A stretch of 64,000 nucleotides of DNA from contig OZ252098.1 of NCBI GenBank assembly GCA_965248355.1, positions 2,624,001-2,688,000 of the forward strand. The letters run 5' to 3'. The DNA is from Candidatus Latescibacterota bacterium (lineage in GTDB: Bacteria > Latescibacterota > UBA2968 > UBA8231). Positions 58,530 to 63,893 of the stretch are shown here, in pieces (position 1 is the stretch's first letter; every line of letters begins with the position of its first letter). The translations under genes and the position numbers were made by a program. The notes beneath the pieces were generated by a model. It had not been told where the DNA came from, ran no database searches, and saw nothing but the letters and a program-made list of their open reading frames with translations.

Positions 58530-59435
58530 ATGTGCGGCATCGCCGGAATTCTGTTCAAGCGTCCGCCGGAGCACCTGAGCGCCGGCCGGGCCCTGGTGGA
58601 GATGCTGGACGGCTGCCAGCACCGCGGCCCCGACTCCACCGGATTCGCCCTCTACGGCCAGGACGAGCCCGGCCGCCTGCGGCTGCGCTTCATCGTCGGC
58701 GAGGACGGCGTCGCCGAGGCGGCGTGCGCCCGCATCGGCGAGGCGCTGGCGGAGCAGGGGGCTTCGGTGGTCAGCGAGGAGCGGGTCGGCGGCGACTACC
58801 GCGTGACGGTGGAGTTCGACGGCGACCTGCAGCGCTTCGCCTACGCCGTGGAGCACGCCGCCAAGGTCGTCTCCATCGGCTCGAGCCTGGAGATCGTCAA
58901 GGACGTGGGCGGCGCCCGCGACGTGGACGCGCGCTACGGCGTGCAGGGCTTCGAGGGCAGCCACGGCCTCGGCCACGTGCGCCTGGCCACCGAGAGCGAC
59001 GTCAAGCCGGAGGCCTCCCACCCCTTCTGGGCCACGGGGTTCGCCGACGTGGCCATCGTCCACAACGGCCAGATCACCAACTACTGGAAGATGCGCCGCC
59101 GCCTGGAGCAGCGCGGCTTCGAGTTCGCCACCGACAACGACTCCGAGCTGATCGCCGTCTACCTGGCGGACAAGCTCTCCCAGGGCCTGCCGCTTCAGGA
59201 GGCCCTGCGCACCTCCATCGACGATCTGGACGGGACCTTTTCCTTCCTGGTGTCGACGAAGGACGAGATCGGCTACGCCAAGGACCGCATCGCCGCCAAG
59301 CCCATGATCATGTACGAGGACGACGACCTCGTGGCCGTGGCCTCGGAGGAGGTCTCCCTCAACCGCCTGTTCCCCGGCCAGGCCCTCGACACCCGCGAGC
59401 CCCCGCCCGGGACCTACGCCACATGGTCCAGGTAG
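58530..59435 (+). CDS. mgsA: N-methylglutamate synthase subunit A (class II glutamine amidotransferase, GlxB-like)
   Basis: MCGIAG N-terminal Cys, HRGPDS, GHVRLATES, HPF, HNGQITN, DNDSE. Confidence 0.8.
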   Translation: MCGIAGILFKRPPEHLSAGRALVEMLDGCQHRGPDSTGFALYGQDEPGRLRLRFIVGEDGVAEAACARIGEALAEQGASVVSEERVGGDYRVTVEFDGDLQRFAYAVEHAAKVVSIGSSLEIVKDVGGARDVDARYGVQGFEGSHGLGHVRLATESDVKPEASHPFWATGFADVAIVHNGQITNYWKMRRRLEQRGFEFATDNDSELIAVYLADKLSQGLPLQEALRTSIDDLDGTFSFLVSTKDEIGYAKDRIAAKPMIMYEDDDLVAVASEEVSLNRLFPGQALDTREPPPGTYATWSR

Positions 59436-61355: not shown

Positions 61356-63893
61356 ATGGCCGTCTACGACCTGCTGCGCATCGACATGCCGGAAGCCCCG
61401 CCCGGCTTCGCGGACGACACCAAGGATCTCCACTACGTGCCGGCGCCCTGCCAGGTCGCCTGCCCCGTGGGCACCGACGCGGCCTCCTACATCGGCCTGA
61501 TCTGGGAGGGGAAGTACGAGGAGGCCTTCGAGGCGATCACGGCGACCAATCCCTTCAGCTCCATCTGCGGCCGCGTCTGCGACGCCCCCTGCGAGCCGGC
61601 CTGCCGGCGCACCGACTCGGACGGCCCCATTCAGATCCGCAACCTCAAGCGCTTCGTCATGGACCGCATCGGCCACCGCTGCGACCCGCCGCCGGTGCCG
61701 GTGACGAAGAAGGAGACCATCGGCATCGTCGGCTCCGGCCCGGCGGGGCTGACCGCGGCCCACGACTTGGGCGAGGCCGGGTACGCCGTGCACGTCTACG
61801 AGATGACGGACCGCCTCGGCGGCATGATGGTGTGGGGCATCCCGGCCTTCCGCCTGCCTCCCGGCATCATCGACGAGGACATCACGCGGCTGACGGGGCG
61901 CTGTTCCGGCCTCGAGGTCCACCTGAACACGGCCCTCGGCCGCGACGTGAGCCTGGCCGAGCTGAAGGAGCGCCACGACGCCGTGGTGCTGGCCATCGGC
62001 GCCTGGTGGGGCAAGCCCATGGGAATCCCGGGCGAGGAGCACGAGGCCGTCGTCGACGGCGTCGGCTGGCTGCGCGAGATCAACGCCGGGGCGCGGCCCC
62101 GGCTGCCGGAGAAGGTGGTCGTGATCGGCGGCGGCGACGTGGCCATGGACGCCTGCCGCGTCGCCCGGCGGCTGCCCGGCTGCGAGCACGTGCAGGTCCT
62201 CTACCGGCGGGGGCCGGATGAGATCCCGGCGCGGCGCATCGAGCTGGAGGGGGCGATCGAGGAGGGTATCGAGTTCGTGCACCATACGCAGCCCGTGGCC
62301 GTCGAGCCCCGCGGCGAGGGACTCGCCCTGAGGTGCGTGCGCACCGAGCTGGGCGAGCCCGAGGCCGATGGCCGCCGCCGCCCCGTCAACGTGCCGGGAA
62401 GCGAGCACGACGTCGACTGCGGCCTGGTCATCGCGTCGGTGGGGCAGAAGGGGGTCTGCGACGAGTTGGACCAGCTGGGCATGATGCGGCCCGACCGCAT
62501 CGACGCCGACTTCGACCGCATGCGCACCACCGACCCGAAGGTCTTCGCCGCCGGCGACGGCGCCTTCGGCGGCTCGACGATCGTCATGGCCATGCACCAC
62601 GGGCAGAAGGCCGCCTACTACGTGCGCAACTTCCTCGAGGGCCACGAGGAGCCCCTGCCGTACCGCACTCCCTACCGCACCCGCCGCGTGGAGGTGGCCC
62701 AGGACGCCATGTGGGAGCGGCTGGCCCTGCAGCACCCGGAGTTCCACGGCCTCGGCCGCGAGCCGGTGACCTTTCCGGAGATCGAGAGCACCTACGACCC
62801 CGAGACGGCCCAGAAGGAGGCGGCGCGCTGCTACCGCTGCGACGCCGAGACCGGCACCCCCGACTACAGCGTGCAGCACCGCGAGGACCTGTTCTCCATG
62901 GCGCGCATGGAGCCGCGGGAGTCCGACAAGCAGCAGGCCATGCTGCGGCGGCGGCTGGCGCCGCGGGACAACCCCTTCCCGGAGGAGCGGCCGGCGCAGC
63001 TGGAGGACCTGGTCTTCCTGCCGGCCAACCTGTCGCGCCTGGTGATCGACCCCTACCGCGAGGCCTGCCGCGTCGGCTGCGACCTGGGCGGCGTCCTGGA
63101 GCTGGCCCACCCGCTCCTGGTGACCGGCTTCGACCGCGCGCCGGGGCAGGTCAAGGAGGCGGTGGCCCTCGGGCTGGCCGAGGCGGAGTCCGTCTACGTG
63201 GGGACCCGGCCCCTGTCGCGGGAGACGGCGGTGACGTGGCTGCAGGTGCTCGAGGAGGACGGCCCCGCGCCGGCGGCGGAAGCGTCCGGGCTGCTGGGGC
63301 GAGTCTCAGGCGCTGGGGGCGCGCGCCTGCCGAAGCGGCTGCGGGAGGGGCAGGCGACGGGGCTGGTGGTCTCGCAGCCGGAGCACCTGGAGGCGGCCGT
63401 GGAGGCGGCCCTCGAGCAGGAGGCGTCACTGCTGCTGCTGAACGGCCAGGGACCCGCGTGGCCCGCCAACGGCTGGGCGGAGCTGGCCGGGGCCCCGGAC
63501 CTGCGGCTGCTGCGCGATGCCGTGAGCCTGCTGCGCGGCCACCGCCGCGAGGGCGACGTGGACCTCATCCACTTCGGCGGGGTCCGCTCGGGCACCGACG
63601 CGGCCAAGCTCATCGGCCTGGGCGCCGTGGCCATGGTGCTGGGGGTCTCGGCGGGCCTGGCGGCCGGCGGTCACATCCAGGGGCCGGAGCTGATCTTCGA
63701 GGCCGACCTCGGCGGCCAGGAGCGGGCCTCGGCGGTGGCCAACCTGGTCCGGGCCAACTGCAGCGAGGCCTCGATGATGGCGCGCTGCTGCGGCAAGACG
63801 GTGCTTCACAACATCGAGCCCGAGGACCTGCGGGCCCTGACCCTGGCCACCTGCGAGAGCACGGGGATTCCGCTGGCGGGGCAAAGGGGCTAG
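61356..63893 (+). CDS. GltD-like NAD(P)H-dependent Fe-S flavoprotein fused to a degenerate FMN glutamate-synthase (MgsC-like) domain
   Basis: PCQVACP, ICGRVC..PCE..C, GSGPAG, GGGDVAMD, FAAGD, EAARCYRC; then LEDLVFLPA, GGVRSGTDAAK, MARCCGKT.LHNIEPEDL.ALT. Confidence 0.85.
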   Translation: MAVYDLLRIDMPEAPPGFADDTKDLHYVPAPCQVACPVGTDAASYIGLIWEGKYEEAFEAITATNPFSSICGRVCDAPCEPACRRTDSDGPIQIRNLKRFVMDRIGHRCDPPPVPVTKKETIGIVGSGPAGLTAAHDLGEAGYAVHVYEMTDRLGGMMVWGIPAFRLPPGIIDEDITRLTGRCSGLEVHLNTALGRDVSLAELKERHDAVVLAIGAWWGKPMGIPGEEHEAVVDGVGWLREINAGARPRLPEKVVVIGGGDVAMDACRVARRLPGCEHVQVLYRRGPDEIPARRIELEGAIEEGIEFVHHTQPVAVEPRGEGLALRCVRTELGEPEADGRRRPVNVPGSEHDVDCGLVIASVGQKGVCDELDQLGMMRPDRIDADFDRMRTTDPKVFAAGDGAFGGSTIVMAMHHGQKAAYYVRNFLEGHEEPLPYRTPYRTRRVEVAQDAMWERLALQHPEFHGLGREPVTFPEIESTYDPETAQKEAARCYRCDAETGTPDYSVQHREDLFSMARMEPRESDKQQAMLRRRLAPRDNPFPEERPAQLEDLVFLPANLSRLVIDPYREACRVGCDLGGVLELAHPLLVTGFDRAPGQVKEAVALGLAEAESVYVGTRPLSRETAVTWLQVLEEDGPAPAAEASGLLGRVSGAGGARLPKRLREGQATGLVVSQPEHLEAAVEAALEQEASLLLLNGQGPAWPANGWAELAGAPDLRLLRDAVSLLRGHRREGDVDLIHFGGVRSGTDAAKLIGLGAVAMVLGVSAGLAAGGHIQGPELIFEADLGGQERASAVANLVRANCSEASMMARCCGKTVLHNIEPEDLRALTLATCESTGIPLAGQRG

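Follow-up and report, generated by a model that had tools for sequence, protein, structure and literature searches.

Candidate NAD(P)H-driven, glutamate-synthase-like N-methylglutamate synthase in a Candidatus Latescibacterota genome

The N-methylglutamate (NMG) pathway is a major methylamine route in soils and oceans, and its middle enzyme is biochemically unresolved. A 64-kb window of the genome of a Candidatus Latescibacterota bacterium (the whole stretch analysed here, contig OZ252098.1, positions 2,624,001 to 2,688,000) raises the question whether this step can be served by an enzyme with an NAD(P)H reductase of its own. At positions 58530-63893 of the window, three co-directional open reading frames (ORFs) form a tight operon that consists of an mgsA-like gene, an mgsB-mgsC fusion and a gene for a protein of 845 amino acids (aa), together called the module below. 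From its sequence, the module can be read as an NAD(P)H-driven NMG synthase resembling glutamate synthase (GOGAT), in its build a re-partitioned NAD(P)H-glutamate synthase, and we consider the chances of this reading to be even. The features on which it rests, including those for flavin mononucleotide (FMN) and flavin adenine dinucleotide (FAD), are as follows.

58530-59435, + strand: mgsA-like N-terminal nucleophile (Ntn, class II) amidotransferase, 301 aa, Cys1 intact (Pfam GATase_6/7)
59423 (ATG) to 61351 (stop), + strand: fused mgsB-mgsC, 642 aa (Pfam GXGXG and Glu_synthase)
61085-61120, + strand: Fe-S ligand motif C555-x2-C558-x2-C561-x4-C566 in the FMN barrel, including the GltB pattern C-x5-C-x4-C
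61356-63893, + strand: GltD-like reductase fused to a degenerate MgsC-type barrel, 845 aa (Pfam, motifs, fold)
61443-61667, + strand: Fe-S region of the fusion gene (Cys motifs; Fer4_20)
61701-62645, + strand: FAD and NAD(P)H domains of the fusion gene (Pyr_redox_2)
62829-62840, + strand: C492-x2-C495 pair of the fusion gene (conserved Cys)
62973-63890, + strand: barrel of the fusion gene (predicted fold, profile alignment)

The initial annotation of this locus had described an mgsA with intact Cys1, MgsB and MgsC as one polypeptide and, 4 nt further downstream, an 845-aa protein with a complete GltD module; all of this is found in the ORFs, together with the motifs that it quoted. The mgsA-like protein starts with MCGIAG, the Cys directly following the initiator Met. 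The ATG of the fused mgsB-C gene at 59423 gives an overlap of 13 nt with the end of mgsA, and the product contains a GXGXG domain (residues 34-167, nt 59522-59923) and a Glu_synthase FMN barrel (residues 301-610, nt 60323-61252, E 3.9e-93) with the motifs NTGEGG, SQGAKPG and GGCIACMQCHVGQC. The fusion gene begins at 61356, after a gap of 4 nt. Its product matches Fer4_20 at residues 30-104 and Pyr_redox_2 at residues 124-416, and with both GSGPAG and GGGDVAMD present, the GltD module is complete at motif level. Six cysteines lie near the N-terminus (C32, C36, C71, C75, C79, C83), and an invariant pair, C492-x2-C495, is positioned after the reductase domains. In a typical GltD, a C-x2-C pair sits at the N-terminus; the module differs from GltD in that one Cys pair is shifted behind the reductase domains and in the extra degenerate barrel, and the displaced pair would complete the two clusters of the GltD part. 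NCBIfam families of GltD-like proteins match the fusion protein up to residue ~499, all with scores under their cut-offs (TIGR01318, 253.4 against 482.95; TIGR01317, 201.5 against 447.7). For glutamate synthase itself, the available text of PMC8097209 gives the electron chain as NADPH to FAD, two [4Fe-4S] clusters, a [3Fe-4S] cluster and FMN.

Homologs of the C-terminal region of the fusion protein were collected at E<=1e-3, with 8000 candidates scored, which gave 803 proteins; most are of ~840 aa and have no database name more specific than 'FAD-dependent oxidoreductase' or 'glutamate synthase'. A first set of 80 loci came from species-representative genomes, all metagenome-assembled genomes (MAGs) or uncultured organisms, of Gemmatimonadaceae, Latescibacterota, Alpha- and Gammaproteobacteria, Planctomycetota and Acidimicrobiia; it is rich in near-identical alphaproteobacterial MAG loci, and counts from it are not independent. 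A second set comprised 26 more distant loci, from Thermoleophilia/Gaiellales, deltaproteobacterial MAGs and the cultured Pararhodospirillum oryzae NBRC 107573. Since the three-gene arrangement recurs in 80/80 related loci, with a fusion gene that is 58-92% identical across phyla (92% in Gemmatimonadaceae), it is not a product of chance. An MgsC homolog with 70-97% identity directly precedes the fusion gene in all 80 loci of the first set, and MgsA was found in each of the 64 that have at least 2.9 kb of upstream sequence, every time with the N-terminus (M/V)CGI and Cys1 kept. In the same number of loci (64/64), B and C form one frame without a stop. The second-set loci share this gene order, and the module as a whole spans at least six phyla with the order kept. 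Since the GltD part and the barrel form a single frame without a stop in 13 of the 14 clean second-set loci, the 167 short matches to the barrel are probably mostly fragments or calls from frameshifted assemblies, and stand-alone barrels were rejected. A BC-GltD fusion in genome G113, suggested by a long open frame, was likewise rejected when translation revealed a stop. One metagenomic protein of 1486 aa unites MgsBC, GltD and barrel in one chain; it is a single-member case and may be an artefact of assembly or gene calling. A Desulfamplus MAG (L213, ~4700-7600) has a barrel-like region directly after MgsC, with no GltD-like part detected there, which could mean that electrons enter by another route or that the assembly has a frameshift.

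The ligands for an Fe-S cluster in the FMN barrel set the MgsC of the module apart from canonical MgsC. In an alignment with the genome's own GltB, the Cys motif of the module falls on CIMMRVCHLDTC. The complete set of four cysteines was found in 66 of 67 module loci, and the first three occur in 67/67, the remaining locus having one residue X, and the motif is kept in 18/18 second-set loci. For comparison, 80 canonical loci were taken from Hyphomicrobium, Mesorhizobium, Rhizobium, Xanthobacter, roseobacters and Pelagibacteraceae, with mgsA, mgsB and mgsC in 80/80 and gmaS in 75/80. No GltD-like gene was found within 5 kb of these mgs loci (0/80), and no Cys was found at any of the four ligand columns in the alignable canonical MgsC sequences (0/79). 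The MgsC of Aminobacter aminovorans pAA01 is also free of Cys at these columns, in a cluster that consists of amidotransferase, GXGXG protein, FMN protein, glnT and the beta, delta, alpha and gamma subunits of a sarcosine-oxidase-family enzyme. We take A. aminovorans to be the source of the classical biochemistry of NMG synthase, an FMN enzyme that needs no external reductant. These sequences suggest that the well-known canonical NMG synthase has no Fe-S cluster, and it is clear that cluster ligands and a dedicated reductase either occur together or are both absent. Since the FMN subunit of the module retains Fe-S cysteines that are absent from canonical MgsC, electrons could plausibly reach it from NAD(P)H, and to this extent the earlier proposal that the GltD fusion supplies the electrons is supported, with motifs and cysteines kept.

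Canonical MgsABC, which also goes by the name GlxBCD, as in A. aminovorans pAA01 or in the mgsABC-gmaS genes of Methylobacterium extorquens DM4, shares with the module the Cys1 amidotransferase, the GXGXG domain, the FMN Glu_synthase barrel and the position beside gmaS and mgdABCD-like genes that the module has in the window. However, overall identity is 33-40% (MgsA 34-40%, MgsC 37-40%), and the module is not orthologous to the canonical clade, forming a clade of its own (100* SH-aLRT, quick tree). It also differs in the fusion of B and C, in its Fe-S cysteines, and in having a fourth part, the GltD reductase with its dead barrel, which none of the 80 canonical loci has. Within the canonical group, MgsC loci (L084-L163, L190) have a 16-residue insertion that replaces the Fe-S cysteines. 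The identity of canonical MgsC to the reference sequence amounts to 83-89% in Alphaproteobacteria and in a Granulosicoccus MAG, and to 81-82% in two Gemmatimonadota loci (L081, L082). A dimethylamine monooxygenase was rejected as an identity for the module, the subunits of that enzyme (42, 36 and 24 kDa; PMC5520151) not fitting.

The nature of the C-terminal barrel follows from profiles rather than from fold. Beyond the reductase part, Pfam gives just a weak FMN_dh match (residues 732-773), and an NCBIfam search of the C-terminal 345 residues alone returned no family. For residues ~540-845, a complete (beta/alpha)8 barrel is predicted (AF2, alignment of 55 domains; pLDDT 93, pTM 0.92), and structure searches with Foldseek and with the Foldseek-independent VIA group it with FMN-dependent TIM barrels: flavocytochrome b2 (Z 21.4, 253 residues aligned, rmsd 3.2), type II isopentenyl diphosphate isomerase (Z 20.6), GltB of Azospirillum brasilense (6s6s_A, Z 18.8, the longest alignment with 277 residues) and dihydropyrimidine dehydrogenase (DPD, 1gt8, Z 15). 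These scores are close together, and the predicted fold alone names no family. Compared by BLASTP, the domain and the adjacent MgsBC are 29% identical in a stretch of 146 residues (E 5e-7). The hhalign alignment of the barrel with canonical MgsC extends from one end to the other (99.8%, E 1.2e-28, 290 columns, 31% identity), whereas only the last 161 columns align with the module's own MgsBC (E 7e-13). Because the profile alignment with canonical MgsC runs end to end, the barrel is, on this comparison, a degenerate copy of canonical-type MgsC that has lost its catalytic loops. It is ~110 residues shorter than MgsC, the MSxGA, G(E/D)GG and QGAKPG loops and the Fe-S Cys region being gone; the barrels show no variation in the phosphate-binding GGVRSGTD segment or in the signature segments at the N- and C-termini. 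The description of this part as a second MgsC-like barrel lacking GEGG, QGAKPG and the Fe-S cysteines agrees with both hhalign and AF2, and the comparison with MgsC and GltB that had been proposed as a check thus points to MgsC. Two other origins were considered and rejected: a recent duplication of the adjoining MgsC, to which the barrel aligns less well than to canonical MgsC, and homology to the GltB central domain, for which hhalign gives a probability of 0.7% with the genome's own GltB. A plasmid search with the barrel gave no match.

The connection with methylamine comes from the genes upstream of the module in the window, which are listed here; GMA is gamma-glutamylmethylamide and HTH helix-turn-helix.

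47512-49059, - strand: gmaS-like type III glutamine-synthetase-family ligase, candidate GMA synthetase (TIGR03105, 593 bits against a cut-off of 469.6)
49056-49622, - strand: soxG/mgdD-like gamma subunit with GCV_T fold (Pfam GCV_T 6e-13; same position as the pAA01 gamma subunit)
49619-52789, - strand: soxA/mgdC-like alpha subunit with folate-binding GCV_T domain (TIGR01372, 830 bits; Fer2_4, Pyr_redox_2, SO_alpha_A3, GCV_T, GCV_T_C)
52680-52964, - strand: soxD/mgdB-like delta subunit (Pfam SoxD 3e-30)
52966-54270, - strand: soxB/mgdA-like beta subunit, FAD (TIGR01373, 487.7 bits; Pfam DAO 1e-70)
57863-58528, + strand: XRE-HTH and cupin (PuuR-like) regulator directly 5' of the module (Pfam HTH_3, Cupin_2; NCBIfam PuuR 3.8e-9)

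The module is thus divergent from a minus-strand soxB-soxD-soxA-soxG-gmaS operon, with the XRE-cupin regulator in between; a homolog of this regulator stands beside the module in 11/80 loci and also in L187, L203, L204 and L210. The true start of the soxA/mgdC-like gene is uncertain, its ORF overlapping soxD. Among solved structures, the ligase is closest to GmaS (7cql, E 4e-131) and to the glutamate--methylamine ligase 9qur, with at most 270 bits for glutamine synthetases, so that it looks like a GmaS. It retains the RhGmaS residues that are named in the accessible text of PMC7948447, except for Gln175, which is replaced by Ala. Gln175 belongs to the ATP/methylamine pocket; among the ligases that were checked, the Ala recurs at one other locus, L003 of Latescibacterota, and all the others keep Gln. 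A co-variation of this position with the module as a whole was rejected, the change being limited to the window and L003.

How far the module can stand in for mgsABC is best seen at genome level. The genome that contains the window, a single contig of 5.5 Mb, has two Glu_synthase-domain genes only, a GltB frame of 1589 codons and the module. In the module-free congener G169, soxB, soxA and a soxG-like gene are followed in one operon by canonical mgsA-B-C and gmaS; compared with the window, soxB is 87% identical and gmaS 48%, and canonical mgsA-B-C is 33-38% identical to the module. Genomes G113 and G118 have soxBDAG-gmaS operons without mgsABC and an XRE-module operon elsewhere, and PF01645 is carried by GltB and the module alone; the planctomycete G010 and the cultured P. 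oryzae follow the same pattern, with gmaS and mgd, the module and no canonical mgsABC. In genomes that have gmaS and mgd without canonical mgsABC, the intervening step has no candidate other than the module. The suggestion that the module replaces mgsABC beside gmaS and mgd is supported by all these cases and by the window itself. A survey of the phylum (168 genomes) detected the module in 21, all of one family, and the TIGR03105 ligase in every one of these; among the distinct module-bearing genomes examined, the ligase scored above the cut-off in 30/30. By hand count in the family of the window's genome, a further Glu_synthase gene besides GltB is present in 58/59 ligase-positive and in 3/17 ligase-negative genomes.

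If the module works as proposed, the gmaS-like ligase would make GMA, and the MgsA-like subunit, a Cys1 Ntn amidotransferase, would hydrolyse its amide and hand the methylamine to the FMN barrel of the MgsBC-like subunit. Methylamine and 2-oxoglutarate would condense in this barrel, and the imine would be reduced to NMG by reduced FMN. For the re-reduction of FMN, electrons would pass from NAD(P)H to the FAD of the GltD part, on to its two [4Fe-4S] clusters and then to the Fe-S cluster of the MgsC part. The MgdABCD-like enzymes would then turn NMG into glutamate and methylene-tetrahydrofolate, so that, in net terms, methylamine nitrogen would be built into new glutamate and no free ammonia would arise. 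The barrel at the C-terminus of the fusion protein, which would be catalytically dead, most likely acts as a structural adaptor of the reductase subunit.

Part of this scheme has been anticipated. The analogy between GMA synthetase plus NMG synthase and glutamine synthetase (GS) plus GOGAT is already in print, with the redox cofactor stated to be unknown (Mindt et al. 2018, PMC6237917, in its available text, citing Gruffaz et al. 2014). The methylamine cycle of GS-GOGAT type that the initial annotation suggested is therefore consistent with the GOGAT-like architecture of the module but not new as an idea. In PMC6237917 and PMC5023235, GMA is put forward as substrate of NMG synthase, while the actual substrate, methylamine or GMA, and the redox cofactor are given as unknown; the latter paper adds that the topology of the pathway awaits enzymology. 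A description of a GltD-linked NMG synthase was not found in the literature, supplementary files lying outside the search. By its sequence features, the reductase-coupled variant belongs neither with MgsABC nor with GltBD.

Several findings weigh against the module being an NMG synthase. Proximity to methylamine genes is the minority case: gmaS is near 21/80 loci of the first set and sox genes near 8/80, gmaS starts at most 500 nt downstream of the module in 12/69 loci, and among 37 loci with wide flanks, a gmaS-like gene lies within ~10 kb in 8 and sox in 3. The more distant second set has gmaS adjacent in 14/26 loci and sox in 7/26. The initial annotation had regarded homologs lying mostly away from gmaS and mgs as speaking against its proposal; adjacency is indeed uncommon (21/80; 8/37), but all 30 genomes carry the ligase. 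That co-occurrence itself discriminates weakly, since 68/147 module-free genomes of the phylum also have the ligase, and kin genomes are not independent. Among the neighbours in gmaS-free loci (97 ORFs from seven of eight selected loci, module genes and L070 left out) are urease operons (L035, L067), AmiC/AmiR-like proteins, Liv-type ATP-binding cassette (ABC) transporters, GlnE and two DMFase-like proteins (L053), which would fit a nitrogen-scavenging regulon and equally a plain second GOGAT. In a quick maximum likelihood tree with SH-aLRT support only, built with eight GltB FMN domains and 13 module sequences, the long-stemmed branches of the module, of canonical MgsC and of a third paralog meet in an unresolved trichotomy. 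The eight signature columns that the module shares with GltB include two Fe-S cysteines and the Glu of GEGG. The Gln175-to-Ala change in the window ligase has to be counted on this side as well.

One rival reading is that of a further isoenzyme of NAD(P)H-glutamate synthase, dependent on glutamine, in a bacterial split form that is expressed for nitrogen scavenging with no tie to methylamine; we consider it unlikely. Like GltB-GltD of A. brasilense (6s6s), the module has a Cys1 domain, an FMN barrel with C-x5-C-x4-C, a GXGXG domain and a GltD-like subunit with Fe-S cysteines, though one that scores under the NCBIfam GltD cut-offs; all GOGAT cofactor motifs are present, GEGG and the Fe-S cysteines being common to the module and GltB, and this isoenzyme would account for the urease, AmiC/AmiR, Liv-type ABC and GlnE neighbours and for the 29/37 wide-flank loci without nearby gmaS or sox. 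However, the large subunit is split and re-fused in the module, and the PF04898 central domain of GltB was not found by Pfam in the three module proteins. The FMN domains of GltB form a long separate branch in the tree, and the module lies outside it, as a clade (100*) within a split MgsC-type group. With conservation in 90% or more of each group (8 GltB, 68 module and 79 canonical sequences) as threshold, 47 columns are the same in all groups, 23 are common to module and canonical MgsC, 8 to module and GltB, and 5 belong to the module only, so that the FMN signature favours canonical MgsC over GltB by 23 to 8. Since all genomes examined (11/11) also carry a long GltB, the module is not the housekeeping GOGAT. 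A glutamine-dependent isoenzyme is further opposed by the swap in the congener, where canonical mgsABC stands beside orthologous mgd genes, and by genomes with gmaS and mgd in which the module is the sole possible NMG synthase.

A rather improbable alternative keeps the chemistry proposed for the module and changes the substrate, to another gamma-glutamyl-alkylamide derived from some other small amine, or to a broad range of them, with NMG as one product or as a host-limited one. Systems of a paralogous ligase with GlxBCD-like proteins do coexist: two Rhodospirillales MAGs (L050, L054) have three tandem sets of ligase plus amidotransferase, GXGXG and FMN barrel, namely the module, canonical mgsABC-gmaS and a third type, whose ligase is only 31% identical and whose FMN barrel has a different Cys pattern. 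The long-stemmed clade that the module forms, the DMFase-like neighbours in L053 and the Ala in place of Gln175 in the window ligase would also fit another amide. On the other hand, the folate-binding GCV_T domain of the linked dehydrogenase suits the removal of a one-carbon unit, this dehydrogenase is orthologous (87%) to that of a canonical NMG operon, and proteobacterial ligases adjoining the module keep the canonical motif PYQNDHED.

Classical NMG synthase biochemistry involves an internal FMN cycle without an external reductant. The module could in principle be such a redox-neutral enzyme, which forms NMG and ammonia from glutamate and methylamine, its GltD part serving to prime, repair or regulate the flavin, and canonical MgsC does work without Fe-S ligands or a reductase. 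Yet we regard this as very unlikely, since the chain from NAD(P)H over FAD to two [4Fe-4S] clusters and the cluster ligands of the FMN subunit are strictly conserved across phyla, which would be costly for mere priming, and the fusion gene keeps its high identity over the same range.

That the 845-aa protein is a self-contained DPD-like enzyme with its own barrel as active site is hardly credible: in DPD and PreT-PreA too, a single chain combines a GltD-like Fe-S/FAD/NADPH module with a TIM barrel from the FMN-oxidoreductase superfamily (the Z of 15 with 1gt8 and the invariant phosphate-binding GGVRSGTD motif also fit), but the DPD barrel is of the dihydroorotate dehydrogenase type, whereas that of the module would be a Glu_synthase/MgsC derivative without substrate and flavin loops, the catalytic residues of alpha-hydroxy-acid oxidases are missing from it in our reading of the alignment, Pfam detects no C-terminal Fer4 or 2x[4Fe-4S] relay domain after it, and the fusion gene was never seen without upstream mgsA and mgsBC in the examined loci.

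If the reading of the module as a reductase-coupled NMG synthase is taken further, it would be a GMA:2-oxoglutarate amidotransferase (NAD(P)H) in a GS/GOGAT-style methylamine cycle, with the barrel as obligatory adaptor that recruits the reductase, in many uncultured Alpha- and Gammaproteobacteria, Planctomycetota, Gemmatimonadota, Latescibacterota and Actinomycetota. This wider proposal is tentative, and we lean somewhat towards doubting it. Were it correct, the Fe-S-free canonical MgsABC would be redox-neutral, and two chemically different NMG synthases would exist. A widespread variant that comes with an NAD(P)H reductase, and the absence from canonical MgsC of the Fe-S ligands that this variant retains, make the question of cofactor and substrate directly testable. 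If confirmed, the variant would also change the reading of gmaS-based surveys of methylamine users and the modelling of the cost and fate of methylamine nitrogen, and it would add a new case of a dead enzyme domain that is reused as subunit adaptor.

Concerning the surroundings of the methylamine genes, two insertion sequence (IS) copies of 1,425 bp at 34107-35530 and 43039-44463 are 99.4% identical and encode a Mutator-family transposase of 428/429 aa, and an IS3-type integrase gene (46224-47333, - strand) directly adjoins gmaS. Because of these nearby IS copies and the integrase, the methylamine cluster can be said to border an IS-rich stretch. Between soxB and a metallophosphoesterase gene, a stretch of ~1.5 kb (54300-55800) has a G+C content of 61-63%, against ~72% for the window; its ORF at 54444-55520 (- strand) has no Pfam match. 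This stretch looks like an insertion, since in the closest relative, L001, the genes that flank it are only ~115 nt apart. Elsewhere in the window, two pairs of direct repeats were found, one of ~590 bp with 87% identity (35843-36432 and 37519-38094) and one of ~620 bp with 83% identity (11643-12262 and 14361-14980).

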